DNA of 64,000 nt from Bacteroidales bacterium (GCA_045599365.1 JAZRVS010000032.1:236-64235), one strand, 5' to 3'. Positions 46,088 through 64,000 are shown, numbered from the stretch's first letter. Notes: generated by a model not told the origin, from the letters alone. Numbers and translations: made by a program.

Positions 46088-46187
46088 TTTAGTGATTAAC
46101 GATTAGTGATTAACTCATAACTCTTAATTCTTAATTCTAAATTCTTAACTCTTAACTCTTAATTCTTAATTCTTAATTCTTAACTCT
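46088..46187 (+). repeat. post-stop-codon repeat: header TTTAGTGATTAACGATTAGTGATTAA plus 9 tandem 7-mers (YTCTTAA)
   Basis: By direct count from 46121: ctcttaa ttcttaa ttctaaa ttcttaa ctcttaa ctcttaa ttcttaa ttcttaa ttcttaa. The module starts at the base after the TAA stop of the upstream gene. Confidence 0.85.
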
Positions 46188-48664: not shown

Positions 48665-48826
48665 TATGTTGCACAACGATTCATTTGGTATGGCTTACCA
48701 ACGTGGACTTTTTATGATTGAATTATAAGAAATTTTGTTGTAGTAAGAAAATACACATTGATAGTCGTGTAAAATTGACTAAAATAAAGATTGTCCTTTT
48801 AATCTCAGCTGGATAGCAGATTAAAA

Positions 48827-49423: not shown

Positions 49424-49480
49424 TTATCTTCTATAATTACCCTCTTATTTTCACTCTTTATATAGAAAAATGAAACTATA

Positions 49481-50857
49481 ATGTATATTAAAATGGATAA
49501 ACTATTTGAATTTCACGAGTTGTATTCACACGAGACTGATGTGTACAACTTGACGGGTTTTAAGCCCCAAATTGTTGATGCAGGGTATCTGAAGAATATT
49601 GGAGTAAGTGTTGAACCCTCCGAAGCGACCCTGCAAGGGCTTATTCGCGGCTCAAAAATTTTCATGCAAAGATTGGAAAACCATACGGTTATCCCAGTCT
49701 CAAAGCTTTATCTTGAGCAGTGTGTGCCAGAGGAAATCCAGACCGAGATACACAACTACACAGGTCGTTGTCCGACACTTACTTTCGAGGTCAATCCAAT
49801 CAAGGGTTGCAACGTGGGATGCCAGTACTGTCTTGTCACCGATGGCGTGCATGAACAAAAGCTGGTGGCATACGAAAACTACCACGAGTATGTGCGTTAC
49901 CTTCTCAAGGTGATGAACGGCACTCCTACATGCGAAGTGACACAAGATGACCTGACACAACGTGCCAATTTACTCAAAGAACTAGCGGATGCCATAGAGT
50001 CTGCACCAGAAAAGAAGAAAGGAATTGAGGCAAAGATTGTGGAACTGAGCCGTGGCAAGAACTGGAACCACTACTACTATTTCTCGCCAAAAACCGAGGC
50101 ATTCCAGGAACCGACCCTCCAGACAGGCATTGCACACCGCATATTGCGTGAGTTTATAGCACATTTTGAGGAATACCCCGATTCAAACGCACGCCTGTTC
50201 ATAGCATCCAAGGCGGGAGCAAAGCATCTGCTTGTCAAAGACGAGCAAGGAGTTACCATTCTCGATTTGTTGGAACAACTCAAAGACCGCTGCCAGTTCA
50301 ACACCTCTGTCAGCATCATGCCTACCGAGTTCCGCAACCTGCTTGAGCCATACGCTGCCCCTATCGAGGAGCGTCTGAAAGCTGTCAAGATGTGTCAGGA
50401 GCGTGGCATCCCTGCCAATTCGGCACTGGTTCAACCTATCTTCACGCCGTACCTGACAGACGAGCATATCAAGGAGTTCTTCGACATGCTGCACGATGCC
50501 GGTATCATCAACTACAAACCAGAGTTCCTTACTGCCTGCATGGAGAACCTTGCACAGTTGGGTCAGTGGTTGGGCTATTTCGACAAGAGTATGGAGAAGG
50601 CACTCTACGAGGATTACATCATGCCTCAGAATGCCGACCACCGCAAACAGCGCGGACGTACAGCTCCCAACCGTGCATTGAGTACTGAAAACATTCAGCG
50701 ACTTATGAAATACACGGACTCTATCGGTATGAGTACCAGCATCTGCTTCTGGGTCCGCAAGATGCTGAACATAAGCACTGATATGATACCGATCATCAAC
50801 AGGAACGGTTTCCAATGCTTGGGCTATCAGTCAAAGCTTTTCAAGTGTAAGGAGTAA
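49481..50857 (+). CDS. radical-SAM protein, unknown function (SPL/COG1533-like layout)
   Basis: CX3CX2C motif GCNVGCQYC at aa 110-117 (DNA 49808-49831). The downstream pattern YFSPKTEAFQEP...FIASKAG...SVSIMP...LEPYAAPIEERLKAV...GIPANSALVQPIFTPY resembles the DNA-photolyase-like radical-SAM family. Confidence 0.7.
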   Translation: MYIKMDKLFEFHELYSHETDVYNLTGFKPQIVDAGYLKNIGVSVEPSEATLQGLIRGSKIFMQRLENHTVIPVSKLYLEQCVPEEIQTEIHNYTGRCPTLTFEVNPIKGCNVGCQYCLVTDGVHEQKLVAYENYHEYVRYLLKVMNGTPTCEVTQDDLTQRANLLKELADAIESAPEKKKGIEAKIVELSRGKNWNHYYYFSPKTEAFQEPTLQTGIAHRILREFIAHFEEYPDSNARLFIASKAGAKHLLVKDEQGVTILDLLEQLKDRCQFNTSVSIMPTEFRNLLEPYAAPIEERLKAVKMCQERGIPANSALVQPIFTPYLTDEHIKEFFDMLHDAGIINYKPEFLTACMENLAQLGQWLGYFDKSMEKALYEDYIMPQNADHRKQRGRTAPNRALSTENIQRLMKYTDSIGMSTSICFWVRKMLNISTDMIPIINRNGFQCLGYQSKLFKCKE

Positions 50858-50864
50858 TATTGTC

Positions 50865-51479
50865 ATGTGGTATGCAGGTTGTCTTAAAAGACTGATGGAT
50901 TTCACTATTGCTGCCGTTGCATTGGCTGCCTTATCGTGGCTGATGGTCGTGGTGGCTCTGCTGTTGCATTTTGCAAATCATGGTGCAGGCATCCTGTTCA
51001 TTCAGGATCGCCCAGGGAAAGACGGAAAGATTTTCCAGCTCTTCAAGTTCAAGTCCATGACCGATGAGTGCGACAGCCACGGCAACCTGCTTCCGAACAT
51101 GGAACGGCTGACCCCCATCGGGAAGTTTATCCGCAGCACAAGCATTGACGAACTGCCTCAGCTACTAAATGTCTTGAGAGGAGATATGGCACTGGTTGGC
51201 CCTCGCCCTTTGCTGGCAAGATATCTGCCCTACTACACGGAACGTGAACGCTTGCGCCATAGCGTCAGACCAGGCATCACAGGATGGGCTCAGGTGCATG
51301 GACGCAACGACCTGCCTTGGAATGAGCGGCTGGAGTTGGACGCTTGGTATGCTGAACACGTGTCGTTCGAACTTGATTGCAGGATTGCATGGATGACCAT
51401 AATAAAAGTAATACGTCACAAGGGGACGAGTATCGAGAAACTTGTTCCATTGGACGTGGAAAGAAAAGAAAAAACATGA
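50865..51479 (+). CDS. small monotopic phosphoglycosyl transferase (bacterial sugar transferase, PglC/WbaP C-domain type)
   Basis: A re-entrant helix, then FIQDRPGKDGKIFQLFKFKSM and IDELPQLLNVLRGDMALVGPRP. Confidence 0.9.
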   Translation: MWYAGCLKRLMDFTIAAVALAALSWLMVVVALLLHFANHGAGILFIQDRPGKDGKIFQLFKFKSMTDECDSHGNLLPNMERLTPIGKFIRSTSIDELPQLLNVLRGDMALVGPRPLLARYLPYYTERERLRHSVRPGITGWAQVHGRNDLPWNERLELDAWYAEHVSFELDCRIAWMTIIKVIRHKGTSIEKLVPLDVERKEKT

Positions 51480-52546
51480 AAATATTGATTACCGGCGCGT
51501 GTGCCGTTACCGCACGCACAATACTGAGAGGACTCAAGATGAGTCCTGAATTTGGGAATGCCGAGTTTATAGGTTGGGACATGTGCGGATTGTTGTATGG
51601 AGTGTACTCCAAGGCATTCGACAAGATGTACAAGGTGCCTGGGGTGAGCGACCCTATATACGAAGAGGTCGTCAGGAAGATACTTGCCGACGAACGTCCG
51701 GATGCCGCCATTATCGTGCCTGAAGTAGAGGTGCGATATTGGGCAAACCACGAGCTGGGTGTGCCTTGTCTGCTGCCTCCCGGCAAATTCGCCGATATTG
51801 CCGTTTGCAAGGACAAGCTGTTTGCCGCCCTTAGGGATACAGACCTCGTGCCAAGTCATTTCAATGCATCTGCCAGTGAAATCAAGTCGCTGGACTTCAA
51901 CAACACGCTGGGCTTCCCTGTCTGGATACGCGACGGAGCGGCCGGCACGGCTTCGGCACGTGGAGCGTTCAAAGCACATTCCAACGACGACCTTCGTGCC
52001 TGGGTGCAGGTGAACAACGGAATAGACATGTTCCAGCTGTCCGAATATCTGCCGGGAAAGATTTACGCCTGCGTGTGCCTCTACAAGAATGGTGTACTGA
52101 AGAAAGTGTGCCTCAGCCAGCGCATTGAATACATCATGTCCAAAGTGGCGGTATCCGGAATTACAGGCAATATATGCAAGGGCAAGCTCATCAACGACCG
52201 AAAAGTGGTTGACACGGCCATACGAACCATCGAGACACTTTGCGCTCAGACGGGGGAAGTTCCGAACGGCATCATTGATGTGGATATGCGTGACGATGTG
52301 AATGGCAATCCCAAGGTGACCGAAATCAACATGCGCTTCCTTTCGTTCAGTTCCGTGTTTGCTTCGGCAGGCTGGAACCTGTTCGAGGATCTTGTGAAAC
52401 TGACGCTGAACCGCGACGACGAGGTGTCGCCCCAGCTAGAGAAGCAATTCCCCGAAAGCAACTGGATTCTGCGCGATGTAGATGGTGAGCCCGTCTATGT
52501 GGAGAATCCTGTGGAGCTGAAGATGGGCGAGTGCTTCCGCAAATAA
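51476..52546 (+). CDS. ATP-grasp-fold enzyme
   Basis: MKILITGA..., a central glycine-rich region, and the late motif KVTEINMRF (E-x-N-x-R of ATP-grasp). The start ATG overlaps the upstream stop as ATGA. Confidence 0.65.
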   Translation: MKILITGACAVTARTILRGLKMSPEFGNAEFIGWDMCGLLYGVYSKAFDKMYKVPGVSDPIYEEVVRKILADERPDAAIIVPEVEVRYWANHELGVPCLLPPGKFADIAVCKDKLFAALRDTDLVPSHFNASASEIKSLDFNNTLGFPVWIRDGAAGTASARGAFKAHSNDDLRAWVQVNNGIDMFQLSEYLPGKIYACVCLYKNGVLKKVCLSQRIEYIMSKVAVSGITGNICKGKLINDRKVVDTAIRTIETLCAQTGEVPNGIIDVDMRDDVNGNPKVTEINMRFLSFSSVFASAGWNLFEDLVKLTLNRDDEVSPQLEKQFPESNWILRDVDGEPVYVENPVELKMGECFRK

Positions 52547-52560
52547 ACGATGTCAAGGAA

Positions 52561-53661
52561 ATGACCAGGATTGTTTTCATATTGAATACGCTCACCCAGC
52601 CACTCTGTTTCAAGCGCATCGAGGAGTTCCGGCGCAGGGGCTACCAGACTGACGTGTATGGCTTCAGTTCCGATTCGCAGGATACAGTCATCCGAAGCAG
52701 TGACATAGTGCAAGTCATAGGAACTTGTGTGCATGGGGAAGGCAACTATTTCCGCCGGTTGCTGACGATGGTGAGAGCCATCCGCAAATTGAACCGCAGG
52801 TATAGGAATGAGGACGTAACATTCTATTATTTTCAAATGGACACCTGCATTGCAGCACGATTGGTAAGCAGAAAGCCATATATATACGAGAACTACGATT
52901 TGGTGTACGGAGCGTTCCCCAATCCTTTGAAATGGATGTTCCGTCACATTGACAGGTGGCTGACCATTCATTCCGTAGCCACCGTAATGACCTCTCCTGG
53001 TTTTCAAGAATATCTATTTCGTGGGAAACACCAAGACAACGTATATATCATTCCCAACAAACTCAATCCGCGTGTATTGGGGTACCCTTACCATCCTACC
53101 GACCTCGACATTGCACATATTCGCTTTGCGTTTGTAGGTCATATACGTTCGGCTGGTTCCTTCAGATTTGCCAAAGTGGTGGCAGAAAGGTTTCCCCAGC
53201 ACTCTTTCCACTTATACGGCACAATAGGCAAGGGTAACGACTTTGCTGGACTGGCGGACCGCCATCCGAACGTGGTGATGCATGGCTCTTTCCAAAATCC
53301 AGACGACTTGCCGGGAATCTATGAACAGGTGGACGTGCTTGTCCCCTTGCTTAGCGAGAACAACACGAAGAATGTCAACAACATCTATTTGGAACCAAAC
53401 AAATTGTATGAATCGGTCTATTTCAGGACTCCCATCGTAATGACAGACGGCACCTATATGGCCCGGAGGGTGAAGGAACTGAACTGCGGGTTCGTGTTGC
53501 CTGACGTATCAGAAGAGGGAATAACCCGTTTCATCAACTCCCTTACCGAGCAATCGCTGAAAGAGATTGTGACACATATTTCAACCATTCCTCAAACCGA
53601 TGCCGTGGATGATTATGCCGGTTTCTTTGAATTTCTGAACAGCAAACTAACCAAATTATAA
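52561..53661 (+). CDS. GT-B-type glycosyltransferase
   Basis: 366 aa. MTRIVFILNT... N-domain, FAFVGHI... start of the C-domain and an EPNKLYES donor-binding-like motif. Confidence 0.55.
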   Translation: MTRIVFILNTLTQPLCFKRIEEFRRRGYQTDVYGFSSDSQDTVIRSSDIVQVIGTCVHGEGNYFRRLLTMVRAIRKLNRRYRNEDVTFYYFQMDTCIAARLVSRKPYIYENYDLVYGAFPNPLKWMFRHIDRWLTIHSVATVMTSPGFQEYLFRGKHQDNVYIIPNKLNPRVLGYPYHPTDLDIAHIRFAFVGHIRSAGSFRFAKVVAERFPQHSFHLYGTIGKGNDFAGLADRHPNVVMHGSFQNPDDLPGIYEQVDVLVPLLSENNTKNVNNIYLEPNKLYESVYFRTPIVMTDGTYMARRVKELNCGFVLPDVSEEGITRFINSLTEQSLKEIVTHISTIPQTDAVDDYAGFFEFLNSKLTKL

Positions 53662-53671
53662 ATTGCAAACA

Positions 53672-54877
53672 ATGAAATATGTAATAGACATACAGGATCC
53701 ATGGCCAGAACCATTCTGCATAAAAATCAGGAACAGGTTGTTTCGGAAATTGCTGTACCCTCCTCTGGCCAAATATGCCGATAGAGTCTATCGCAAGGCC
53801 GATGGAGTGGTGGCGGTATCGGAAACTTACCTGAAGTGGGCTGCACAGTTCAACCATAGCGCGGACTTATGGCTGTCTGTGTTTCTGGGGAAGGACTCGG
53901 CATTGTTTGACAAATACAGGAAGGAAAATGTCTTTCAACGGAACGACAATGAGCTGTGGATTGCGTATGCCGGCTCACTCAGTTACAGTTACGACCTTCC
54001 GACTGTGATAGATGCGCTTGCCTTGCTCTCTCAGCGTCAGGGAGCCGACTTACCACCTGTGCGCCTTGTTGTTATGGGAGACGGACAACTGCGTTCACAA
54101 TATGAGGCATACGCCAAGGCACACGGCATTGCCGCCGAGTTTACCGGCATGTTGCCATATCCCCAAATGGTAGGCAGGCTCTGTGCCTGCGACATCTGTG
54201 TGAATCCCATCATTATGAGCAACCGTGGCAGCATTATCAATAAGGTAAGCGATTATGCGCTGGCAGGTTTGCCTGTAGTCAATTCGCAGAATTGCGACGA
54301 ATACCGCCAGATGATAGCGCGTTATGGATGCGGCATAAACTGCGAATGTGAAAACAGCGCGGAAATGGCTGACGCCATCGGAAAGTTGGCATCGGACGCA
54401 AATCTCCGCCGTACTATAGGTGAGAACTCCAGAAGAATGGGTGAAGAGTGTTTCGACCGCCGGAGCATCTATCCGCATATTGTGGATGCCCTGGCAGGGT
54501 ATGGTGCAAAAAAGGTGATGATTGTAGCCAATTTCCACCCCACCCTCAACGGTTCCACCGAAGGAAGGTTCACCTATCTGGCACAGATGCTTCATGAGCA
54601 GGGCTTTGATGTGGAGCTGGTGGTGTCGGACTTTGAACACCGCACGAGAAAACGCCGTGAATCGCTGTCCAATCCTTATCCGTTCAAACTCACCTATCTT
54701 CACGAACCTGGTTACAGCAACATTGTATCTGTACGGAGAATGTGGAGCCATTATGTGTGGGGATGCAATGTCGGGAAATACCTGAAATCGTGCAAGGACA
54801 AGCCTGATGTGGTCTATGTGTCCGTGCCATCGCTAACGGCAGCAAGGAAGGTGTCATTTATATGTAAAAACAAGTAA
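53672..54877 (+). CDS. GT4 (WbuB-like) glycosyltransferase with apparently circularly permuted sequence order
   Basis: Aa 1 to ~280 begin at the mid-N-domain motif DIQDPWPE and run through a full C-domain. Aa ~282-402 (VMIVANFHPTLNGSTEGRFTYLAQMLHEQGFDVELV...PDVVYVSVPSLTAA) look like the first ~125 aa of a canonical GT4. Confidence 0.55.
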   Translation: MKYVIDIQDPWPEPFCIKIRNRLFRKLLYPPLAKYADRVYRKADGVVAVSETYLKWAAQFNHSADLWLSVFLGKDSALFDKYRKENVFQRNDNELWIAYAGSLSYSYDLPTVIDALALLSQRQGADLPPVRLVVMGDGQLRSQYEAYAKAHGIAAEFTGMLPYPQMVGRLCACDICVNPIIMSNRGSIINKVSDYALAGLPVVNSQNCDEYRQMIARYGCGINCECENSAEMADAIGKLASDANLRRTIGENSRRMGEECFDRRSIYPHIVDALAGYGAKKVMIVANFHPTLNGSTEGRFTYLAQMLHEQGFDVELVVSDFEHRTRKRRESLSNPYPFKLTYLHEPGYSNIVSVRRMWSHYVWGCNVGKYLKSCKDKPDVVYVSVPSLTAARKVSFICKNK

Positions 54878-54882
54878 GCATC

Positions 54883-55485
54883 ATGGATAACAAAGGAAAA
54901 AAGAAATTGAGCCTTTCCTTCAGGTTGCTGCGCCGGATGGGGTTCAACTATTCCGAAGATGAGTATGGGGATGTCTCGCTGTGGAAGGTTGTGAAACGTG
55001 TCTGTACCACCTACCGTAACATGTTTCTGCAAGGCCCAATTATGAACGGCTGGCTGTTGTCGCCGTTACAGCCCAGACGTCTCCGTGCATGGGGAATGAG
55101 GAAGATGGGCTGCCATGTTGGCAAGGGCTGTTTTATAGGCAACCATGTGCGTCTTGACTCCGGCCATGCCGATATGATAACGTTGGAGGACAATGTGACA
55201 ATAACATCTGGAGTCCACCTGCTCTGCCATCAGCGTGATATTTCGGATTATTGTGCGGGTGATGACTATATGAAACTTGGCTATGTCGTCAAACCCATTG
55301 TCCTGAAGAAGGGTTGCTCAGTGGGAATAGAGAGTGTGGTGATGCCAGGTGTCACCATAGGCGAAGGGGCAATTGTAGGTGCAGGTTCACTGGTAACGAA
55401 AGATATTCCGGCATGGACGGTGGCTATGGGACGACCCGCCAAGGTTGTCCGCCAGATACCGGAACGTAAAGGTTTAATGGTTTAA
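54883..55485 (+). CDS. hexapeptide-repeat (LbH) acetyltransferase
   Basis: Left-handed beta-helix repeats and C-terminal VGAGSLVTKDIPAWTVAMGRPAKVV. Confidence 0.8.
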   Translation: MDNKGKKKLSLSFRLLRRMGFNYSEDEYGDVSLWKVVKRVCTTYRNMFLQGPIMNGWLLSPLQPRRLRAWGMRKMGCHVGKGCFIGNHVRLDSGHADMITLEDNVTITSGVHLLCHQRDISDYCAGDDYMKLGYVVKPIVLKKGCSVGIESVVMPGVTIGEGAIVGAGSLVTKDIPAWTVAMGRPAKVVRQIPERKGLMV

Positions 55486-55502
55486 AGGTTATAGGTTTAA
55501 TG
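55468..55502 (+). repeat. 8-bp tandem array A (AAGGTTTA-type, about 4 units)
   Basis: aaaggtttaatggtttaaaggttataggtttaatg. It contains the last 5 codons and the TAA of the acetyltransferase, and the ATG of the next gene. Confidence 0.85.
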
Positions 55503-56363
55503 AATATATTGACATTCGATATAGAGGAGTGGTATATGAAAGTTGTCAAAATGGGATGGCGCGACAAACGTGCCGAGTACGACCGTTATTTCCATCGCAT
55601 CCTCGACAAATTGGATGAACGAAGCCTGAAGGCTACCTTCTTCTGTTTGGGTGAGATGGGGAGGCTTTTCCCTGAAACGGTTCTTGAGATTGACCGTCGC
55701 GGACATGAGGTTGGCTGTCATTCCAATGTTCACCTTCCGCTCAACACCCTGACAAAGGAAGAATGTCTTGACGATACGAGAAAGGCCCTGGATTCGCTGG
55801 AACAATGTCTTGGGAAGAAGATAATCAGTTACCGTGCGCCGGCATTTTCTGTTGGAGAAGAGAACAGGTGGATGTTTTCCGTCCTTACGGAGTGTGGCAT
55901 AGAGCGTGACTCGTCTGTATATCCTGCCCGTAGGGATTATGGCGGCTTTCCGGATTTCGGAACACAAAGGCCTGCTTTGATAAAGGTAGGCAACAGTTTC
56001 ATCAAGGAATTTCCCATACCGCTGGCAATGGTCGCCGGAAAGCAGTTTGCCTATTCTGGGGGCGGTTATTTCAGGGTACTCCCATACGGATTTATCCGCA
56101 GGCAGATGATGAAGTCGGACTACACTATGACTTATTTCCATCTGGACGACCTGCTTCCGGAATCGAAAGGGGTGATGAGTGCCGAAGAGTACCGTATGCA
56201 CTTCAACAAACCCGGAACACTCATCGAACGCTACAGACGTTGTTTCAGGGCCAACGTCGGGAAGAAAGGTGCCATGGACAAACTGATGCGCCTGCTTGAC
56301 GAAATGGATTTCATCGGACTGTCTCAGGCCGATGGGCAGATAAAACATTGGGATGTGATATGA
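55500..56363 (+). CDS. polysaccharide deacetylase family protein (DUF3473-type)
   Basis: MNILTFDIEEWY start, ATFFCLGE and CHSNVH motifs. Confidence 0.8.
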   Translation: MNILTFDIEEWYMKVVKMGWRDKRAEYDRYFHRILDKLDERSLKATFFCLGEMGRLFPETVLEIDRRGHEVGCHSNVHLPLNTLTKEECLDDTRKALDSLEQCLGKKIISYRAPAFSVGEENRWMFSVLTECGIERDSSVYPARRDYGGFPDFGTQRPALIKVGNSFIKEFPIPLAMVAGKQFAYSGGGYFRVLPYGFIRRQMMKSDYTMTYFHLDDLLPESKGVMSAEEYRMHFNKPGTLIERYRRCFRANVGKKGAMDKLMRLLDEMDFIGLSQADGQIKHWDVI

Positions 56364-56396
56364 ACCAAGCATCCAATAGCAGAATAAAAAGCCATA

Positions 56397-56825
56397 ATGA
56401 AGAATATGACTGTAAATGACTGTAAAATCATAGAGCTGCCAAAGATTGTTGACCCAAGAGGGAATCTTTCTTTTGTAGAGACCTTCAGGCATGTTCCATT
56501 TGAAATCAAGCGGACATACTGGATTTATGACGTTCCCGGAGGAGAAAACCGTGGAGGTCACGCTTTTCGCAATAATCAGGAATTTGTGATTGCTCTCTCG
56601 GGCGCCTTTGACGTGGTTGTGGATGATGGCAAGGAAAAGAATACTTTCACTCTCAACCGTTCTTACTATGGACTATATATCCCTGCCGGTCTTTGGCGTA
56701 CAATGGAGAATTTCTCCACCAATTCACTGGCTCTGGAGTTCGGATCGATAAAGTATGACCGTGAGTCTGATTACATAGAAGAGTACGAACAATTCCTAAA
56801 ACTGAAGAGCAATGGCGAAATATAA
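56397..56825 (+). CDS. WxcM/FdtA-like sugar 3,4-ketoisomerase (cupin)
   Basis: IELPKIVDPRGNLSFVE...IKRTYWIYDVPGGENRGGHAFR. Confidence 0.8.
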   Translation: MKNMTVNDCKIIELPKIVDPRGNLSFVETFRHVPFEIKRTYWIYDVPGGENRGGHAFRNNQEFVIALSGAFDVVVDDGKEKNTFTLNRSYYGLYIPAGLWRTMENFSTNSLALEFGSIKYDRESDYIEEYEQFLKLKSNGEI

Positions 56826-57231
56826 TGTATTTGATTGCTCGATGGTAGAGCTTGACAAACATCATAGTGAACGCAAGGGTAATCTCACTGTGGTGGAGAA
56901 TGGCAACAGCATTCCGTTTGACGTGAAGAGGGTTTATTACCTTTATGATGTCCCTGGAGGAGAGAGCCGTGGTTCGCACGCTCATCGTGAACTTGAGCAG
57001 CTGATAATTGCGGCATCAGGCTCGTTCAAAGTCACCTTGGATGACGGCAAGTGCAAGCGAACGTTTTTCCTGAACCGTCCCTATCAGGGCTTATATGTCA
57101 GGCTTGGAATATGGCGTGATTTGGAAGACTTCTCTTCCGGCTCAGTGTGTATGGTACTGGCCAGTGATGTATATCAGGCAGATGATTACATTCGTGATTA
57201 TGGTGAATTCCTTCGCTTTCGCGAGGGATAA
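56812..57231 (+). CDS. second WxcM/FdtA-like cupin paralogue
   Basis: VELDKHHSERKGNLTVVE...VKRVYYLYDVPGGESRGSHAHR. It overlaps the previous gene by 14 nt. Confidence 0.8.
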   Translation: MAKYNVFDCSMVELDKHHSERKGNLTVVENGNSIPFDVKRVYYLYDVPGGESRGSHAHRELEQLIIAASGSFKVTLDDGKCKRTFFLNRPYQGLYVRLGIWRDLEDFSSGSVCMVLASDVYQADDYIRDYGEFLRFREG

Positions 57232-57264
57232 GGGTTTAAAAGTTTAATGTTTAAAAGTTTAAAG
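57231..57264 (+). repeat. 8-bp tandem array B (left flank of the four-helix-bundle gene)
   Basis: agggtttaaaagtttaatgtttaaaagtttaaag. It begins within the fdtA-like TAA stop and ends at the ATG at 57265. Confidence 0.85.
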
Positions 57265-57645
57265 ATGGGGAAAGATAAGAAGTTTGCATTTGAAAATCTT
57301 GAAGCTTATAAGGTTGCTCGTGTCCTTGTAAGGGACGTTTATCGTCTTCAAGACAAATTTCCGAAAGAAGAACGATACGCTCTTGGTGATCAGATTAGAC
57401 GCTCTTCTACATCTATTACAAGCAATATAGCCGAAGGAGCGGGTCGCAATTCTTATAAAGAAAAGATACATTTTGTAGAGATTGCTTTCGGAAGTATGAC
57501 TGAATGTTTTAGCCAACTTCAAAATGCCCAAGACTTAGGCTATATTCGTGATGAAGAAGTAGAAGCCTTACGCCCTCAATTCAATCATGTGGCGGCTTTA
57601 CTTTCGCTTCTGAAGAGGAGCTATGAAGAAAAGCTAAACTCATAA
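57265..57645 (+). CDS. four-helix-bundle protein (23S rRNA intervening-sequence protein / Avd-like family)
   Basis: FENLEAYKVARVLVRDVYRL...FPKEERYALGDQIRRSSTSITSNIAEGAGRNSYKEKIHFVEIAFGSMTECFSQL is a close match to the family signature. Confidence 0.85.
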   Translation: MGKDKKFAFENLEAYKVARVLVRDVYRLQDKFPKEERYALGDQIRRSSTSITSNIAEGAGRNSYKEKIHFVEIAFGSMTECFSQLQNAQDLGYIRDEEVEALRPQFNHVAALLSLLKRSYEEKLNS

Positions 57646-57679
57646 ACCCTTAAACCTTTAAACCTTTAAACTTTTAAAC
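57643..57679 (-). repeat. 8-bp tandem array C (right flank, opposite orientation)
   Basis: taaacccttaaacctttaaacctttaaacttttaaac is the reverse complement of the GGTTTAAA-type units. It is followed by the small hairpin GTGCggcaGCAC (57680-57691) and an orphan unit cttaaaccttta (57693-57704). Confidence 0.85.
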
Positions 57680-57708
57680 GTGCGGCAGCACACTTAAACC
57701 TTTATAAA

Positions 57709-58167
57709 ATGATACACCCTTTAGCCGACTGTAAATGTCCGAATATACCGGAATCCACCAATGTGTGGCAGTTCTGTGTGATTTTCCCCAAGGCTACCAT
57801 AGGGGAAAATTGTAACATCTGCTCCCATTGTCTCATCGAGAATAAAGCTGTTATTGGAAACAATTGCGTTATCAAGTGTGGCGTACAGATTTGGGACGGA
57901 ATCACGCTTGAAGACAATGTAATGATAGGAGCCAATGTCTCCTTTACCAACGATATGTACCCAAGGGCTCACAATAAAGATTGGAAGATGTTACCGACTC
58001 GTGTTTGCAAAGGCGCAAGCATAGGTGCTGGTGCAACGATACTTCCAGGTCTAACCATTGGCGAAGGGGCTATGGTTGGTGCCGGATCTGTTGTAACCAA
58101 AGACGTCCCTGCCGGCGAAATGTGGGCTGGTAATCCTGCAAGGTTCATGAAGAAAGTTGAAAAGTAA
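57709..58167 (+). CDS. hexapeptide N-acetyltransferase, FdtC/QdtC (WxcM C-terminal)-like
   Basis: LbH repeats ([44 protein letters not shown]), in context with fdtA-like and aminotransferase genes. Confidence 0.75.
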
Positions 58168-58171
58168 AGAG

Positions 58172-59323
58172 ATGATACCTTTCCTTTCATTAAAAGACGT
58201 TACCGCTCTTCACGGTGCGGAAATCAATGAGGTCGTAACTCGTGTCGTGAACAACGGTTGGTATCTTCAAGGAGTTGAAAACGAGAAGTTCGAGAAAAAC
58301 TATGCCGACTACATCGGCACAAAATACGCCATCGGTTGTGCAAACGGTCTGGATGCCCTCATCTGGATATTCCGTGCGTACATCGAGATGGGCGTGATGA
58401 AGCCAGGTGATGAGGTGATAGTTCCTGCAAACACCTACATAGCAACCGTTCTTGCTATCACGGAGAACGGTCTTGTACCTGTGCTTTGCGAGCCGAAGCT
58501 TAATACTCTTGAGATTGATGATGACCTGATAGAAGACCTCATCACTCCGAAGACAAAGGCCATTGCGGTTGTGCATCTCTATGGACGCATTGCCATTACT
58601 CCTAAGATTCTGGAACTTTGCAAGAAGTACAATCTGAAACTTGTGGAGGACAATGCTCAGGCTCACGGATGCGTATATGCTCCTACCGGTCAAAGGACTG
58701 GAAGCATTGGTCACGCTGCTGGTCATAGCTTCTATCCCGGGAAGAACCTTGGTGCTCTTGGTGATGGTGGTGCTGTTACCACCAATGATCCCGAACTGGC
58801 AGCAGCCGTTCGTGCATTGGCGAACTATGGCTCTTACAGGAAATACGTGTTCAAATACACTGGCCGAAACAGCCGTTTGGACGAAATCCAGGCAGCAGTT
58901 CTTGATGTCAAGCTCAAGTATCTGGAAGAGGACAATGCAAAGCGCAAGGCAGTGGCTCACTACTACTATGAGCATATCAACAATCCTTTGATTACCCTTC
59001 CTGACCATCTGCCTGATGAGCAGTGTGCTTATCATCTCTTCCCAATTATCGTTCATGACCCTTCCCTTTCGGGAGGGGACGGGGGTAGGCTTCGTGACCG
59101 TTTGCACGACTATCTGGCAGATAATGGTGTGGGTACTGTGATTCATTATCCTATTGCTCCTCATAAGCAGGAGTGTTATGCGAAAGAGTCGTGGAATGTT
59201 CCTCAACTGTCTTTGCCAATAACGGAGAAGATTGCCGTTGAGGAGTTGAGTCTGCCTATCGGGCCGGCAATTACGATAGAGGAAGTGAAGGAAGTCGTCA
59301 ATTTACTTAATCTTTTCGTATAA
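58172..59323 (+). CDS. DegT/DnrJ/EryC1/StrS-family sugar aminotransferase (FdtB/QdtB-like)
   Basis: MIPFLSLKD...GWYLQG...HLYGR...[15 protein letters not shown] (PLP-lysine region). Confidence 0.9.
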
Positions 59324-59333
59324 GATAGCAGTA

Positions 59334-60875
59334 ATGACCGATCAATTATCCAGTTCGAAACGTTTGGCGAAGAACACCCTGATGTTATACTTCAGGATGA
59401 TCCTCACAACAGTTGTAAGTCTCTATACCAGCAGAGTTGTTCTTCAGACACTCGGAGTATCAGACTATGGCCTATACAGTGTGGTCGGTGGTTTTGTCTC
59501 TATGCAGGGGGTACTGAACTCACTTTTTATCAGTTCCACCCAACGATATATGGCCTTTGCATTAGGCAAAGGAGAGCAAAGTCAAGTAGAACGGGTGTTT
59601 TCAAATTCTGTGGTTATTCAACTATGTATTGCAGGCATTGTATTTATTGTTGCAGAGACTTTTGGTTTATGGTTCGTCAACAACAAGTTGGTAATTGAAC
59701 CGACAAGAATGGTGGCGGCAAACTGGGTATATCAGGCTGCCGTTCTCTCAATGGTCATCAATATCATTAGCATACCATACAATTCCTGTATCATTGCCCA
59801 TGAGCATATGGATATTTATGCCTATGTGAGTATTATTGATGTGCTAATGCGTTTGGGTATCGTATTTTTGATTCAGATAATTCCCTTCGACAAACTCATA
59901 TCGTATTCGATACTTTTAGTGATGGTTGCGGTAACAATTCGTCTCTGCTACACCATATATAGCAAAAGGAAATTTGAGGAATGCCGGACAAAGAACCATT
60001 TCAGGAAGTTTGACAAACCATTGTTCAAAGAAATGTTCGCTTTTGCAGGATGGAGTTTTCTCGGCTCCATGGGATTCTCTTTTAAGGACCAGTTCTCCAA
60101 TATGATGCAGAATATGTTCTTTGGAACAACTGTCAATGCAGCACGTGGTCTGGCTATGAGGGTGAGTTCTGTAGTGACATCTTTCTCAAACAATTTTATG
60201 ATGGCTTTGAATCCTCAAATTACAAAGCAATACGCATCAGGAGATAAAACACAATATCAGAAATTGGTTTTCACCGGGTCAAGACTATCCTTCTATCTGC
60301 TTTCGATTATCGCAATTCCGGTTTTGACCAACTTAGACTATCTATTAGGGTTATGGTTAGTGGAAGTTCCACAATATACTGACATCTTCATCAATATTTC
60401 GCTTTTTTCAGCCTTGGTTTACTCGTTGTCGCAAGGAACAACGACTGCAATATTTGCGACAGGAAAGATAAAGGCATTTGAGATAGGTATTTCAATAATT
60501 CTTCTTGCTGAATTGCCAATCGGTTATGTGTTGCTAAAATCAGGCTATCCACCTTATGCTGCAATGCTTCCTGCATTTTTGACTCAACCTGCTGGACTTG
60601 TATACCGTTTTATCCTGCTAAAGAAGAATGAACCTTCATTCAGTTATAAGTACTATTTCATCAACATAGTTCTTCGGGCATTTATATTGTTCGCCATAGG
60701 ATATGCGGCTTCCAAATTTATTGCGGATTTGATGGGGCCAAGCATCTGGGGGTTGTTATGCAACGTTGCAATCAGTGTGATGCTATACGCGTCAATTCTC
60801 CTTATCGGTGGGATGGATAAAAACGAGAGGAAAATAATAATTGAGCTCGTAAGAACGAGAGTGGTAAGGGGGTAA
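59334..60875 (+). CDS. wzx: Wzx-type polysaccharide flippase (MOP superfamily)
   Basis: 513 aa, about 12-14 TM helices, N-terminus RLAKNTLMLYFRMILTTVVSLYTSRVVL. Confidence 0.8.
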   Translation: MTDQLSSSKRLAKNTLMLYFRMILTTVVSLYTSRVVLQTLGVSDYGLYSVVGGFVSMQGVLNSLFISSTQRYMAFALGKGEQSQVERVFSNSVVIQLCIAGIVFIVAETFGLWFVNNKLVIEPTRMVAANWVYQAAVLSMVINIISIPYNSCIIAHEHMDIYAYVSIIDVLMRLGIVFLIQIIPFDKLISYSILLVMVAVTIRLCYTIYSKRKFEECRTKNHFRKFDKPLFKEMFAFAGWSFLGSMGFSFKDQFSNMMQNMFFGTTVNAARGLAMRVSSVVTSFSNNFMMALNPQITKQYASGDKTQYQKLVFTGSRLSFYLLSIIAIPVLTNLDYLLGLWLVEVPQYTDIFINISLFSALVYSLSQGTTTAIFATGKIKAFEIGISIILLAELPIGYVLLKSGYPPYAAMLPAFLTQPAGLVYRFILLKKNEPSFSYKYYFINIVLRAFILFAIGYAASKFIADLMGPSIWGLLCNVAISVMLYASILLIGGMDKNERKIIIELVRTRVVRG

Positions 60876-60965
60876 GGGGGTAAGGGTTTAAAGGTTTAAA
60901 GGTTTAAGGGTTTAAGGGTTTAAAAGTTTAAAGGTTTAAAGGTTTAAAGGGTTTAAGGGGTTAAA
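60863..60965 (+). repeat. 8-bp tandem array D (about 12 units; GGTAAGGG variants grading into GGTTTAAA/GGGTTTAA)
   Basis: ggtaagggggtaagggggtaagggtttaaaggtttaaaggtttaagggtttaagggtttaaaagtttaaaggtttaaaggtttaaagggtttaaggggttaaat. It spans the wzx stop and runs to the ATG at 60967. Confidence 0.9.
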
Positions 60966-60966
60966 T

Positions 60967-61986
60967 ATGAAAATAAGTATAATGCTTACCAGTTATAATC
61001 TGGTAGATTACATTGATACTTCAATAGCGAGTGTCGTTAACCAGGAGATGCTTTGCGATTGGGAACTGCTGATAGGCGATGACGGCTCCAACGATGGAAC
61101 TGTCGAGAAAATAAAAGCCTGGATTGAAAAGTACCCGGAGAATATAAAGCTGTTTCAGATACCAAGGGATTTATCCTCCTCAAAGGTGGGCTCACGCGCA
61201 GCAAATAACCGGGCTTTGCTATTGGAGAATGCAACTGGAGACTACTTGAACTATCTTGATGGCGATGACTGCTGGTTGGGAACAGAGAAACTGAAAACTC
61301 AAATCGAAAAGTTGGAAAGTCCTGAATATGCAGAATGCTCCTGTTGCGGCCACAACATTGAAGCATACGTCATACAAGAAAACAGAAGATATGCAATGAT
61401 GCAACCTGTAGATAGAGAATCAATCATTATTCCAAAGTTCAGGTATGAGGGCTCGTGCTATATTCATACGAATACCATAGTGTTCCGTAAGTGCTGCAAG
61501 GAGAAACTTCTGAATTCGCTCTACCGCAACTTTCTCAATGACATATTTATTACATTCCTGATTCTTCAATACGGTCCAATGCTGTATCTACCAAAGGTTT
61601 GGGCGCGTTACAATATGACCGGGAACGGTCTTTGGACCGGTAACAACCCCGTGTATGGATGTTTTCGGAATCTGCAATTGCTTGATTTGAAATTATATGA
61701 GGCCCCTGATTTGAGGAGACGGATATTGCTTTCCCATAGAATGGATGTTGTAAAAATAACGAAGCATTACAAGACGGATGATTTTCCTGTCATTGAACCA
61801 TTGTTTGACAAACTGGATGAAAAGATATTCAAGTATTCTTTCCTGTTTTCCAAAATTTCAAATGTCACCATAATTGACAGAATCGTGAAATTTCGGATGC
61901 TTGTCGAAATGAATTTTCTGTGTTACAAACGTGCTCTTACGACAAAGTTAATCAGTATATTTAGATGCAAATATGAAGGCAAGTGA
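60967..61986 (+). CDS. GT2-family glycosyltransferase
   Basis: ISIMLTSYNLVDYIDTSIASVVNQ...LLIGDDGSNDGT...YLDGDD. Confidence 0.85.
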   Translation: MKISIMLTSYNLVDYIDTSIASVVNQEMLCDWELLIGDDGSNDGTVEKIKAWIEKYPENIKLFQIPRDLSSSKVGSRAANNRALLLENATGDYLNYLDGDDCWLGTEKLKTQIEKLESPEYAECSCCGHNIEAYVIQENRRYAMMQPVDRESIIIPKFRYEGSCYIHTNTIVFRKCCKEKLLNSLYRNFLNDIFITFLILQYGPMLYLPKVWARYNMTGNGLWTGNNPVYGCFRNLQLLDLKLYEAPDLRRRILLSHRMDVVKITKHYKTDDFPVIEPLFDKLDEKIFKYSFLFSKISNVTIIDRIVKFRMLVEMNFLCYKRALTTKLISIFRCKYEGK

Positions 61987-63178
61987 ATGCATAGATAATA
62001 TCCTGAAACCCTTCAGTGGTGACGGTTGGCAGGTGAATTTCCTGGTATCAATGGTATGGGGTGCGGTAATCGTAACTTATCTGAATGCCATTTTTATCAG
62101 GCTGCCATTTTATGACGTTGTCTGGCAATATATAATCCCTGCATTGTACATCACCGTCATAGCATTGTGCTCAGGGCATTTCATAAAATTGCTGTCACCA
62201 GGTGACTATCTGTTCTGGGGTTTTCTTTCACTGGTGTATTTTGCCTATTATTTGTTTGGGCCAGACCGGAATGCCAGTTATATGCAGGAATACATGCCCG
62301 CCTTTTTTTTGACGGTGACATCTTATTATTTCATGGGGAAAGTTGTCGATGACGATGTGTTCGATATGTTGTACTGGCTGTCGATATTGACGATATTCCT
62401 AAGGGTTGTTTCTACATTTATCACTCACAGTTTTGCAGAGGCTGTTCTGTCAAACGACACTCAGGAATTTCAAGGTCAGGCCTACGAATTGCTGGTTTTC
62501 TCCCTGTTTGTTTTATGGTACCTGCTCAAAAAATTCAACATCGTATCCTTATTGTTCTCTGTTTTAAGTATATCTGTTCTGTTCGCCTTTGGTTGCAGGG
62601 GTGCCATACTTTGTGTGGTTTCTTTCATTATCTTATACCTGTTGCTGGTCAAAAGATTGATTCGGAATGTACCGTTGTTGATAATATGTCTTTCTGTATG
62701 CGGTATCTGCGTCCTGTTTGCCAATCAGATAATCACGGGTACGAGTGCAGTAATGGAAAACCTTGGTTTCAGCACCCGCATTTTTGATTTTTATTTAGAT
62801 GATGATATTTTGAATGACACGGGAAGGGATCGGATTCGAACGCTATTGTTTGATGAATTGCAGGAGCATCAATTCGGACTTGGAATATGCGGGGCTCAAG
62901 GTGCGATAGGGTCATATTCACACAATTTTATACTCGAGTTCATAGTATCTTTCGGATGGGTGTTTGGAAGTTTGATTTGCGTGGGTGTGTTCTTTATTTT
63001 GTTCAAGGGATTCAATGCCTGCGCCAATGATGAACAGCGGGGATTTTTTCTCGTTCTATTCTGTGAGTCAGTTATTCACCTGTTTGTGTCGGATATAGTT
63101 TGGAAGGAACAATTCTTTTATATGCTATTAGGTTATTGTGCAATGTTGATTGGCCGGCAAAAGGATTTAAAGGTTTAA
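61973..63178 (+). CDS. wzy: Wzy-like O-antigen/capsule polymerase (polytopic membrane protein)
   Basis: 401 aa, about 10 TM helices, a loop with GICGAQGAIGSYSHNFILE, and placement next to wzx and GTs. Confidence 0.6.
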   Translation: MKASECIDNILKPFSGDGWQVNFLVSMVWGAVIVTYLNAIFIRLPFYDVVWQYIIPALYITVIALCSGHFIKLLSPGDYLFWGFLSLVYFAYYLFGPDRNASYMQEYMPAFFLTVTSYYFMGKVVDDDVFDMLYWLSILTIFLRVVSTFITHSFAEAVLSNDTQEFQGQAYELLVFSLFVLWYLLKKFNIVSLLFSVLSISVLFAFGCRGAILCVVSFIILYLLLVKRLIRNVPLLIICLSVCGICVLFANQIITGTSAVMENLGFSTRIFDFYLDDDILNDTGRDRIRTLLFDELQEHQFGLGICGAQGAIGSYSHNFILEFIVSFGWVFGSLICVGVFFILFKGFNACANDEQRGFFLVLFCESVIHLFVSDIVWKEQFFYMLLGYCAMLIGRQKDLKV

Positions 63179-63209
63179 AGGTTTAAAGGTTTAAAGGTTT
63201 AAAAGTTTA
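63161..63209 (+). repeat. 8-bp tandem array E (6 units)
   Basis: aaggatttaaaggtttaaaggtttaaaggtttaaaggtttaaaagttta. It includes the last 5 codons (KDLKV) and the TAA of the wzy-like gene. Confidence 0.9.
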
Positions 63210-63215
63210 TTTGAT

Positions 63216-64000
63216 ATGGACAAACCTCTTGTAACAATCGGTGTGGTTTCATACAACTCGGCTGGCACTATAGTCGAGACACTTGAAAGCGTGAAAGACC
63301 AGACTTATGGGAATATAGAACTGATAATATCTGATGATGCATCCAAGGATAACACCGTAGAGGTATGCCGTGATTGGCTTGAAAGAAATGCATCGCGTTT
63401 TTCAAGAGTGGAGTTAATCACAACAGACGTAAATACAGGCACTTGCGGAAACTGCGACAGGCTTCTTGAAAAAACAACCGGGCTGTGGTTGCGCATTTTG
63501 GCTGCGGATGACATATTGTTCGCTACAGCTGTCGGAAAATTCATTGAATATGCTGCTGCCAATCCGGAGGCTCAGTGGATTTTTTCGAAAGCAAAGTGCT
63601 ATAAGCATTCATTCAAAAAGGATAATTATCTGCCGGAAAGAAATCGTCACTATCTGTTATCAAAGTTTCCTGCATTTTTTACATTATCTGCAAGAGAACA
63701 ATACTTGAAACTTATTCATATTAACGTATTGTACCCGCCGGCAGATATTGTCCTGACAGATGCTCTTCGAAACGTCGGAGGCTTCGAGGCGAAATACGGT
63801 TTGAACGAAGATATTGTCAAGGGTATCAAACTCAGCAAGGCGGGAATCAAGTGCCATTTATTAGACGATTACACAATGGGGTATCGTATGGGAGAAAGCA
63901 ATGTCTGCTCAAATACAACACGCTTGTTCAATCTCAAAAGCCTTGAAAGTTCCTTATCGATTCGGAAAGGATTGTGCTGGGACGATACTCCATGGAATCT
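63216..64000 (+). CDS. GT2-family glycosyltransferase, 5' part (continues beyond window end)
   Basis: Own translation from the ATG at 63216: MDKPLVTIGVVSYNSAGTIVETLESVKDQTYGNIELIISDDASKDNTVEVC...LAADD. The frame is open to base 64000. Confidence 0.8.
   Translation, partial: MDKPLVTIGVVSYNSAGTIVETLESVKDQTYGNIELIISDDASKDNTVEVCRDWLERNASRFSRVELITTDVNTGTCGNCDRLLEKTTGLWLRILAADDILFATAVGKFIEYAAANPEAQWIFSKAKCYKHSFKKDNYLPERNRHYLLSKFPAFFTLSAREQYLKLIHINVLYPPADIVLTDALRNVGGFEAKYGLNEDIVKGIKLSKAGIKCHLLDDYTMGYRMGESNVCSNTTRLFNLKSLESSLSIRKGLCWDDTPWN

Follow-up and report, generated by a model that had tools for sequence, protein, structure and literature searches.

An apparent insertion of an S23p-family gene bracketed by inverted 8-bp tandem arrays in a polysaccharide locus of a Bacteroidales bacterium

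Within the window (the whole 64,000-nucleotide stretch of DNA that was analysed), comparison with related loci shows the segment 57232-57708 to be, as judged from gene order and spacing, a 477-bp insertion at the normally translationally coupled overlap of the genes for FdtA and FdtC. In the inserted unit, inverted arrays of an 8-bp repeat flank an S23p-family ORF, inside an FdtA-FdtA-FdtC-FdtB block, and the array pair 57232-57264 / 57643-57681 can be identified with high confidence as the arms belonging to an S23p cassette that has inserted here. The main new result extends beyond this locus: genes of the S23p family are mostly bracketed by 7-8-bp tandem arrays across many phyla. The initial annotation did not recognise the arrangement as a described element, which is correct only in part: long simple sequence repeats and intervening sequence (IVS) elements are kinds already known, and short-period arrays as well as heptamer-bearing IVS elements have been published (PMC4679880, PMC4692102, PMC4990558), whereas no paper on a general association of short-period tandem arrays with IVS-type S23p elements was found in the literature.

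Five tandem arrays of period 8, with 3.9-12.9 units each, are present at the locus according to both Tandem Repeats Finder and direct reading, as had originally been noted; the first three are delimited there as 55467-55500, 57234-57263 and 57643-57679. Together with the S23p gene and the remainder of the insertion, they are arranged as follows:

55467..55502, + strand: lone array, about 4.4 units, AGGTTTAA/TGGTTTAA
about 57232..57264, + strand: left arm of the S23p cassette, about 4 units, GGGTTTAA AAGTTTAA TGTTTAAA AGTTTAAAG
57265..57645, + strand: four-helix-bundle gene, 126 aa, S23p / 23S rRNA-intervening-sequence protein family (Pfam, TIGR02436, PDB, PHROG)
57643..57681, - strand: right arm of the S23p cassette, 4.6 reverse-complement units, TAAACCCT TAAACCTT and further units
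57680..57708, + strand: insertion tail that ends just before the FdtC ATG (57709) and holds a small GC hairpin, a further unit in reverse complement (TTAAACCT) and TTATAAA
60863..60965, + strand: lone array, about 12.9 units, three of GGTAAGGG and then 10.5 of RGGTTTAA
63160..63209, + strand: lone array, 6.1 units

A search of the window with the 16-mer AGGTTTAAAGGTTTAA at up to two mismatches returned 20 matches, every one within the five arrays, against an expectation of 0.15 and a maximum of 2 in shuffles; the rest of the window yielded none, including the 5′ half of the locus, which had rightly been described as free of arrays. The array at 63160-63209 is the most regular (95% matches), and at 60863-60965 a 24-bp higher-order period scores 133 versus 119 for period 8; such higher-order periods, as reported by Tandem Repeats Finder, point to slippage or block duplication.

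The earlier gene identities for the polysaccharide locus agree with Pfam, and at each of the five junctions the spacer from the stop to the next ATG is filled by array. The array at 55467-55502 overlaps the last 5 codons and the stop (55483-55485) of the acetyltransferase gene, and its last unit is overlapped by the deacetylase ATG at 55500. The left arm begins immediately after the FdtA2 stop (57229-57231) and directly abuts the ATG of the four-helix-bundle gene (57265), the TAA stop of which opens the right arm as its first triplet. The Wzx stop (60873-60875) lies inside the array 60863-60965, which ends 1 nt before the ATG of the adjoining GT2 gene (60967), and Wzy ends, with its last codons and its stop (63176-63178), inside the array 63160-63209, the last GT2 gene starting at 63216, 6 nt past it. 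The repeat-derived stops reported previously, those of FdtA2 and the four-helix-bundle gene in or at arrays included, are real, as are the three repeat-encoded tails (acetyltransferase ERKGLMV, Wzx RVVRG and Wzy QKDLKV, each followed by the stop). The FdtC ATG (57709) is 27 nt beyond the right arm, with one further unit in the gap. Because TAA is present on both strands of the unit and 8 is coprime to 3, arrays of at least three units are closed in all six frames, in agreement with the initial annotation; consequently, an array cannot sit within a gene, so that the location at gene junctions is partly forced, and a change in array copy number cannot switch the reading frame.

The case for an insertion comes from 80 related loci, in which the block FdtA1-FdtA2-FdtC-FdtB is conserved (adjacencies 46, 31 and 30). 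At the FdtA|FdtC junction, the genes overlap or are separated by at most 10 nt in 28 of 32 relatives, with ATGA overlaps or 3-nt spacers between FdtA2 and FdtC, and none of the 32 carries an array there; hence the arms either came with the cassette or grew afterwards. The actual edges of the block, deacetylase|FdtA1 and FdtB|Wzx, are array-free. The proposal that the arrays divide the locus into functionally coherent blocks is not supported: the conserved FdtA-FdtC-FdtB block is interrupted by the array pair. The alternative of footprints of a small mobile cassette fits, two of the arrays being the inverted arms of the inserted S23p cassette.

The assignment of the gene is based on PF05635 (E 4.8e-35; 120 bits versus a cut-off of 33.8), TIGR02436 (E 5.3e-32; 110 bits versus a cut-off of 24) and XCC0516 (PDB 2GSC; E 2.4e-21). 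The predicted fold of 57215-57725 (-138.3 kcal/mol, z -3.62) has the arms paired and the ORF in the loop: both the minimum-free-energy and the centroid structures pair 57223-57264 with 57643-57712, the former also containing the GC hairpin of the insertion tail (GTGCGGCAGCAC, 57680-57691), and an inverted-repeat scan agrees on the pairing of the arms (I14, I19, I22). In the same scan, the right arm matches its own left arm at 84% over 31 nt and is 91% complementary over 44-45 nt to the lone arrays at 60886-60930 and 63166-63209 (I1, I2); given this better fit to the downstream lone arrays, the simple picture of a local stem may be incomplete. The cassette borders show no convincing target-site duplication, only ATAA on both sides, and the genes that were identified near the cassette, between about 54.9 and 63.2 kb, include neither a transposase nor a REP-associated tyrosine transposase.

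In samples of S23p genes picked by protein similarity alone, with arrays scored within 150 bp of the gene, a 7-8-bp tandem array accompanies 218 of 253 genes (86%) from many phyla, compared with 62 of 259 neighbouring genes (24%) used as a control; for about 14% of the S23p genes, no array is detectable. The first set (68 of 86 genes with an array) shows periods of 7 (83 arrays), 8 (35) and 6 (3), an array density of 2.04 per kb near the gene versus 0.30 per kb farther off, and 28 inverted versus 3 direct arm pairs. With a metagenome set added, the count is 149 of 173; an independent set of Xanthomonas-type S23p genes gives 69 of 80, with 28 inverted and 4 direct pairs. The S23p gene is on the strand of both its neighbours in 96 of 119 cases, and the downstream arm begins at or before the S23p stop codon in 69 of 128. 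Among relatives with 57-83% amino-acid identity, the gene contexts differ and the units are related yet different, still being complementary; the unit varies from cassette to cassette while the two arms of one cassette remain complementary. The arms appear to be inherited with the cassette and to change quickly; their units loosely follow S23p relatedness. In addition, 25 "empty" inverted array pairs, with loops shorter than 150 nt, were found.

The closest known counterpart of the cassette is the IVS of 23S rRNA, which in Coxiella burnetii and Leptospira contains an S23p ORF and is seen as a selfish, horizontally moving element; in Coxiella, a stem cut by RNase III encloses the ORF in its loop, two to three strain-variable GACAGAT heptamers are located just 5′ of the ATG, and cleavage by RNase III occurs at the first heptamer (PMC4990558). 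The two elements share an ORF of one protein family (S23p / 23S_rRNA_IVP), its placement in sense orientation within a host transcript and in the loop of a long stem formed by inverted flanks, a stem that is predicted in the present case, and tandem repeats directly 5′ of the ATG, with a unit of 7 nt in the IVS and 8 nt here. They differ in that the IVS occupies helix 25 or 45 of 23S rRNA, whereas the S23p cassette is found between FdtA and FdtC, with no rRNA detected in the window by Rfam; in that the arms of the cassette consist wholly of the 8-bp tandem unit; in that lone arrays with the unit of the cassette occur at three other junctions of the locus; and in that RNase III cutting belongs to the IVS, while processing is predicted for the cassette.

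With moderate confidence, we favour the interpretation of the unit as an IVS-like, promoterless selfish cassette with arms that form an RNA stem, accompanied by lone arrays that are prone to slippage and either descend from the arms or are related to them; the S23p cassette itself is probably selfish. It would lack a promoter of its own and be read through from that of the operon, and pairing of the arms in the transcript would yield a long stem whose loop contains the ORF, a layout shared with the Coxiella IVS. The stem would probably be processed in the same manner, so that the element is tolerated in an operon or rRNA with little harm; by analogy, such a stem with RNase III-type processing appears about evenly balanced between right and wrong, and the fold and the IVS precedent (PMC4990558) are compatible with the earlier suggestion of RNA-processing sites, processing here being predicted. 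The arrays would provide the upstream gene with a stop in every frame and the downstream gene with an AU-rich leader reaching its ATG, and insertions would accordingly survive solely at gene junctions.

The arrays themselves resemble a second known class. Cyanobacterial STRR heptamers, to which PMC4692102 also refers, are long simple sequence repeats. Repeats of this class, with units of 5-11 nt, include GGGAATC in Xanthomonas and GGGGAYT in Nostoc (PMC4692102), and TAACTGA repeats occur in Beggiatoaceae, Cyanobacteria and Bacteroidetes (PMC4679880). All five arrays of the locus consist of units in this size range, head-to-tail and beyond chance, and all five lie at gene junctions, repeats of this class being mostly intergenic and present at many genomic sites in scattered taxa. 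Further shared traits are unit lengths that are no multiple of 3, positions often beside start or stop codons and within operons (e.g., pecE|pecF), occurrence either alone or in closely spaced inverted pairs, and among other units, a patchy spread over phyla and length differences between relatives. The unit of the locus, however, is an 8-bp one, AGGTTTAA, and neither PMC4692102 nor PMC4679880 draws a link to S23p, whereas a direct link is seen here: the orthologue of XCC0516 in Xanthomonas vasicola, located between accB and accC, has GGGAATC-type arrays on its flanks.

Three further kinds of element were compared. Miniature inverted-repeat elements and REP-type hairpins are likewise small, non-autonomous and intergenic with hairpin-capable inverted arms, but the arms of the cassette are tandem arrays, the unit of which changes per copy, with no conserved terminal sequence. 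Avd of diversity-generating retroelements has a homologous four-helix-bundle fold (PF22296, E 2.6e-4; PHROG 3206, Avd, E 4.8e-8; NF033474, E 8.4e-6); identification of the S23p gene as Avd was rejected, the NF033474 score being 26 bits versus a cut-off of 80 and the neighbours all being glycan genes (Pfam), and neither a reverse transcriptase nor template/variable repeats were found among the identified genes 9 kb upstream and 6 kb downstream of the cassette. Contingency-locus repeats, which mediate phase variation, are also slippage-prone and near surface-structure genes, but the arrays of the locus lie between stop and start, outside an ORF or promoter spacer; being closed in six frames, they were rejected as phase-variable repeats.

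The origin of the lone arrays is the weaker part of our interpretation. Lone arrays far outnumber cassettes: of 119 loci with AGGTTTAA arrays, only 4 have an S23p gene within 8 kb. Of 274 lone arrays, 83 have the unit of local arms versus 19.2 ± 3.8 expected (about four times chance); in one genome, La6_metabat2.017, lone arrays (L012, L038) occur alongside cassettes with AGGTTTAA arms (L088). The three lone arrays of the locus, which bear no trace of a second arm or ORF remnant, might be derived from the cassette arms or have a common origin with them, perhaps as residues of hairpin bypass at replication or as products of local copying, and might then have lengthened or shortened through slippage or block duplication. 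Derivation from cassette arms is proposed tentatively, falling somewhat short of even, and the direction of cause may be either: the arms may give rise to lone arrays, or local arrays may be co-opted by cassettes.

The most substantial rival, unlikely in our estimate, regards the arrays as long simple sequence repeats that are autonomous, generated by polymerase slippage at a slippage-prone length of 7-8 nt and surviving solely between genes as neutral filler; S23p cassettes would simply be prone to insert into them or recombine with them. It accommodates the predominance of lone arrays, the higher-order periods and the arrays near 24% of the control genes from these neighbourhoods, and heptamers are described as the commonest long simple sequence repeats in bacteria (Mrazek 2007, as relayed in PMC4679880). 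Moreover, at least 119 loci from many phyla contain AGGTTTAA arrays, several per genome and beside unrelated housekeeping genes. Insertion into a pre-existing array predicts direct flanks; a few cassettes do have these, in keeping with this rival, but the inverted-to-direct ratios are 28:3 and 28:4, and the rival also sits poorly with the array-free FdtA|FdtC junction of 32 relatives, with arm units that loosely track S23p relatedness and with the usual overlap of the S23p stop codon by the downstream arm. A cis-regulatory role, as protein-binding sites in RNA or DNA, translational insulators or length-variable spacers tuning glycan gene expression, appears improbable. Arrays do end at or a few nucleotides from start codons, a translational role has been proposed for TAACTGA heptamers directly upstream of start codons (PMC4679880), and sense-strand stop triplets are in excess in both upstream (76% of units versus 64% when shuffled) and downstream arms (56% versus 36%); of the insulator idea, the all-frame stops are real, but they are only modestly enriched among such arms generally. 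Against such a role, units differ so much between loci that no binding motif is shared, the orientation of AGGTTTAA arrays relative to flanking genes is roughly unbiased (by crude gene calls), all-frame stops preclude a frame switch by copy number, and overlapping genes serve the relatives well at the FdtA|FdtC junction. Promoter-like sites (30 versus 19.3 ± 4.3 in shuffles, in a scan lacking Bacteroidota promoters) and terminator-like sites (11 versus 7.5 ± 2.6) are only marginally in excess; in that promoter scan, only two sigma-70-like matches touch an array (55481-55510 and 63211-63238), and no terminator-like site found does.

The lead idea of the initial annotation, portable homology linkers for exchange of glycan modules by homologous recombination, is not supported and is now very improbable. 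One unit does recur at four junctions of the locus and in many genomes, and inversion between the inverted 44-45-nt matches, which lie 3.2 and 5.5 kb from each other, is conceivable in principle; but the only block with measurable conservation is cut mid-way rather than edged by arrays, other glycan loci have many, differing units and hence little common homology, and no locus was found that joins one module to different neighbours at an array. The expected enrichment at glycan-locus junctions is likewise not seen, the genes adjoining AGGTTTAA arrays elsewhere representing 182 unrelated Pfam families with no glycan bias. An artefact of assembly or sequencing is hardly credible as the source of the arrays: they are often found at contig ends of short-read assemblies, but complete chromosomes and genomes of isolates contain them too (among them Flavobacterium sp. 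UMI-01, Shewanella aestuarii and OW818690.1), and they are imperfect, each distinct, with intact reading frames and start codons on both sides.

The gene names given to the array region in the initial annotation are confirmed by Pfam, the Wzy assignment relying on a match below the cut-off.

Genes of the array region as identified with Pfam
Hexapeptide acetyltransferase
Polysaccharide deacetylase
Two FdtA genes
57265-57645, PF05635 four-helix-bundle protein (E 4.8e-35)
FdtC-like acetyltransferase
DegT/FdtB aminotransferase
MatE-like flippase (Wzx)
GT2 glycosyltransferase
Wzy, weak Wzy_C match (E 5.7e-4; 20 bits, under the Pfam cut-off of 31.7)

The four-helix-bundle protein belongs to the S23p family, with 110 bits against TIGR02436 (cut-off 24) and E 2.4e-21 against the structure PDB 2GSC, and has a distant match to Avd, a retroelement accessory protein. 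Exact-protein look-ups with the Wzx, the GT2 and the four-helix-bundle protein of the window returned no record, and a metagenome scan with its Wzy returned no relative. In the window, Rfam at gathering thresholds and PADLOC, for defence systems, gave no match.

Arrays were detected with Tandem Repeats Finder over the whole window combined with direct reading of positions 55300-63400.

Arrays of period 8 in the window
55467-55500, array
57234-57263, array
57643-57679, array with reverse-complement unit
60863-60965, GGTAAGGG x3 running into 10.5 RGGTTTAA units
63160-63209, array

All five arrays are thus real: a two-unit probe (up to 2 mismatches) has 20 matches in them and none elsewhere in the 64-kb window, against 0.15 expected from shuffles. 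The repeat-encoded protein tails (KGLMV, VVRG, and KDLKV) and the close approach of the arrays to the following ATG were also correctly described, the last GT2 start being at 63216. Because each strand of the unit contains TAA and 8 shares no factor with 3, arrays of at least three units are, as previously claimed, closed in all six frames and cannot sit within a gene. The 60.9-kb array has a higher-order period of 24 bp (Tandem Repeats Finder), and such periods point to array growth via slippage or block duplication.

The arrays had been proposed, as the leading idea, to be homologous linkers that delimit functional glycan modules, a reading that does not survive comparison with 80 loci containing a relative of FdtB. 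The conserved adjacencies in these loci are FdtA1-FdtA2 (46), FdtA2-FdtC (31), and FdtC-FdtB (30); deacetylase and Wzx homologues almost never adjoin the FdtA-FdtC-FdtB block. The FdtA2/FdtC junction of the relatives is an ATGA overlap or a 3-nt spacer, does not exceed 10 nt in 28 of 32 cases and contains an array in none of the 32. The same junction in the window spans 477 bp (57232-57708) and consists of an array, the four-helix-bundle gene, an inverted array, a small GC hairpin and an extra unit. Accordingly, an array pair splits the only block with measurable conservation, and the true edges of this block in the window (deacetylase/FdtA1, 33 nt; FdtB/Wzx, 10 nt) are array-free. Nucleotide homology to the related loci is only ~70%, a divergence too high for recent recombination breakpoints to be mapped. 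In the annotation of polysaccharide loci, these arrays and the small gene they enclose should be treated as insertions, not as pathway components or module borders.

Short-period arrays are also present in the 80 FdtB loci, mostly with periods of 7 bp (63 rows) and 8 bp (28 rows; only 4 rows for period 6) and with diverse sequences; some occupy stop-to-start spacers like those of the window. Two other Bacteroidales loci, L187 (9029-9520) and L183 (9471-9987), contain independent S23p cassettes (TACACCA; TTTTGAT, direct arms) immediately upstream of FdtC and FdtB, and in a further locus (L121) the FdtC/FdtB spacer is filled by a lone (TTGAGAA)n array; the junctions of the Fdt operon have been struck repeatedly. 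In another locus (L146), the FdtB coding sequence contains an in-frame, array-like stretch of AGGTTAG type at 10500-10535 (..GCLVKVRGEGLEVREMM..), a site where the FdtB of the window has different residues, so that arrays can occasionally become part of a protein where the frame remains open.

In the RNA fold of 57215-57725, the left arm pairs with the right arm and the entire ORF lies in the loop (-138.3 kcal/mol vs -114.4 +/- 6.6 in shuffles, z -3.62). The right arm is 84% complementary to its own left arm over 31 nt, less than to the two downstream lone arrays, which it matches at 91% over 45 and 44 nt from 3.2 and 5.5 kb away; judging from complementarity, alternative long-range pairings are possible, as is a role of these sequences as inversion substrates. 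The intervening sequence (IVS) of the Coxiella 23S rRNA, which has been termed a selfish element, similarly holds an S23p ORF in the loop of an RNase III-cut stem, with 2-3 strain-variable GACAGAT heptamers immediately upstream of the ATG and a cut at the first repeat (PMC4990558). The window cassette resembles this element in its S23p ORF but is located in a protein-coding operon and has 8-bp arms. The window contains an IVS-like S23p cassette with 8-bp arms within a protein-coding operon, together with lone arrays of the same family.

The link between S23p genes and arrays extends far beyond this locus. The S23p genes met incidentally in the fetched loci were all flanked by short-period arrays of varied unit; afterwards, S23p genes were sampled by protein similarity only and scored for a 7-8-bp array within 150 bp.

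S23p genes that carry such an array, by sample
80 genome loci: 68 of 86
Those 80 loci, S23p genes of FdtB loci, the window and 80 metagenome loci: 149 of 173
Independent set, with the XCC0516 sequence of Xanthomonas as seed: 69 of 80
Combined (149/173 and 69/80): 218 of 253 (86%)
Control, other genes of the same loci: 62 of 259 (24%)

Near S23p there are 2.04 arrays per kb, vs 0.30 per kb elsewhere, and their periods there are almost exclusively 7 and 8. Where arrays occur on both sides, classification at the unit level gives 28 reverse-complement pairs vs 3 direct ones, and 28 vs 4 in the independent XCC0516-seeded set. [quoted passage not shown] The arms therefore seem to move with the cassette, change fast and remain paired. 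In three metagenome contigs (L281-L283) with S23p proteins 81-83% identical to that of the window, the arms are made of longer composite units, GTTTAAGCGCC-N6-GGCTGTTTAA, in place of plain 8-mers. Each of these units is a small GC hairpin with TTTAA motifs on either side, similar to the hairpin GTGCGGCAGCAC that lies at 57680-57691 in the right arm of the window.

XCC0516 is the crystallised S23p protein (PDB 2GSC). Its orthologue in Xanthomonas vasicola (L360, NZ_JSBW02000051.1, 2959-3409), presumably located between accB and accC (names read from flanking translations), has (CGGGAAT)n upstream and (CCCATTC)n downstream. These flanks connect an S23p cassette with the published GGGAATC heptamers, which form G-quadruplexes. 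The GGGAATC family was reported without a link to any gene (PMC4692102); in the same publication, GGGAATC and GGGGAYT heptamers occur as single arrays or as 70 inverted pairs in Xanthomonas and within the Nostoc pec operon.

An exact three-unit probe of the window repeat matched at least 119 loci, and among the matches listed, which include isolates and complete chromosomes, most are in Bacteroidota (Muribaculaceae, Sodaliphilus, Prevotella, Rikenellaceae, Chitinophagaceae, and Flavobacterium); Holophagae, Omnitrophota, Cloacimonadota, Gammaproteobacteria, Desulfobacterota, Saccharibacteria and Firmicutes were also matched. The repeat is not confined to glycan loci: among the matches listed, 150 array-adjacent genes represent 182 Pfam families with no glycan bias, including trigger factor, nucleoside phosphorylase and amino-acid kinase. 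These arrays often adjoin other 8-bp arrays of unrelated unit. Gene calls in foreign loci were crude longest-ORF heuristics, which picked a wrong antisense ORF once within the window, and the orientation statistics of lone arrays are accordingly weak.

In loci with S23p cassettes, 83 of 274 lone arrays have the same unit as the local arms (1 mismatch allowed, any rotation or strand), compared to 19.2 +/- 3.8 expected from the arms of other loci, and in the genome La6_metabat2.017 AGGTTTAA-armed cassettes and lone AGGTTTAA arrays occur together. There are also 25 cases of "empty" inverted array pairs with short loops. Lone arrays may thus derive from cassettes, but we only infer this derivation because, among the matches listed, an S23p gene lies within 8 kb in only 4 of 119 AGGTTTAA loci and the lone arrays of the window have no second-arm remnant. 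In Chitinophagaceae (L042 4989-5081, L097 3975-4066, L090 near 292-330), an empty hairpin made of two inverted AGGTTTAA arrays around a ~25-nt loop abuts the 3′ end of tRNA-Leu; this hairpin is kept across several genomes and may be a terminator.

Among the other explanations considered, CRISPR was rejected because spacers are absent, integron attC sites because arms flank both sides and an integrase is lacking, a diversity-generating retroelement because no reverse transcriptase lies among the identified neighbouring genes, and telomere-like G-rich repeats because the units elsewhere are not G-rich. A promoter or terminator role was likewise rejected: sites resembling promoters or terminators are only marginally commoner than in shuffles, and almost none contact an array. 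The best-supported reading, on the present sequence comparisons, is a small mobile cassette with RNA processing, which the initial annotation listed as a minor alternative.

Many bacteria are rich in short tandem arrays of 7-8-nt units, which have been a puzzle since 1990. To our knowledge, no origin or function of these arrays is accepted, and we know of no role for the S23p ORFs of rRNA intervening sequences. The two puzzles may be parts of one thing, given that 86% of 253 S23p genes are bracketed, mostly by inverted pairs, that they are usually co-strand in the host operon and that nearby lone arrays often share the unit. This general association is a more interesting result than the window locus and renders two old questions testable. 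It would be going rather far, and is in our estimate unlikely, to regard the 7-8-bp arrays (STRR, heptamer long simple sequence repeats, GGGAATC, and TAACTGA) as largely the arms and footprints of a single, widespread class of S23p cassettes that are selfish and promoterless, with S23p acting on the arrays in trans. Such cassettes would encode the S23p four-helix-bundle pentamer, an Avd homologue, and would reside both in rRNA and at operon junctions, and S23p would bind the arrays or promote their copying or spread.

The catalogue of 5-11-nt short tandem arrays by Mrazek (2007), as summarised in PMC4679880, has heptamers as the commonest class. In Beggiatoaceae, Cyanobacteria and Bacteroidetes, TAACTGA heptamers lie shortly before start codons, intermixed with other heptamers, and are missing from close relatives (PMC4679880). 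Our literature searches found no publication on the repeat sequence of the window itself, only the Coxiella IVS paper for S23p, PF05635 or TIGR02436 together with repeats, and none joining short tandem arrays and S23p/IVS elements in general.

The polysaccharide locus (48800-64000) has a G+C content of 45.2%, compared to 37.3% for the whole window and 37.1% for the S23p cassette, and may have been acquired horizontally. A second repeat family, (TTAGTGA)x3 followed by (TTAAYTC)x11 with a higher-order period of 35 bp, is found at 46089-46187, directly after the stop of the gene at 45092-46087, and a short array at 22221-22264 (GAATTAAGAGTTAAGAGTT...) is the reverse complement of its unit, so that the genome has at least two short-period array families. 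T-rich 9-10-bp tandem repeats at 30849-30914 and 30974-31006 (TTTTGTTGC x3.7, perfect copies) are unrelated to the 8-bp arrays and probably correspond to a Lys/Ala-rich repeat encoded by the minus strand.
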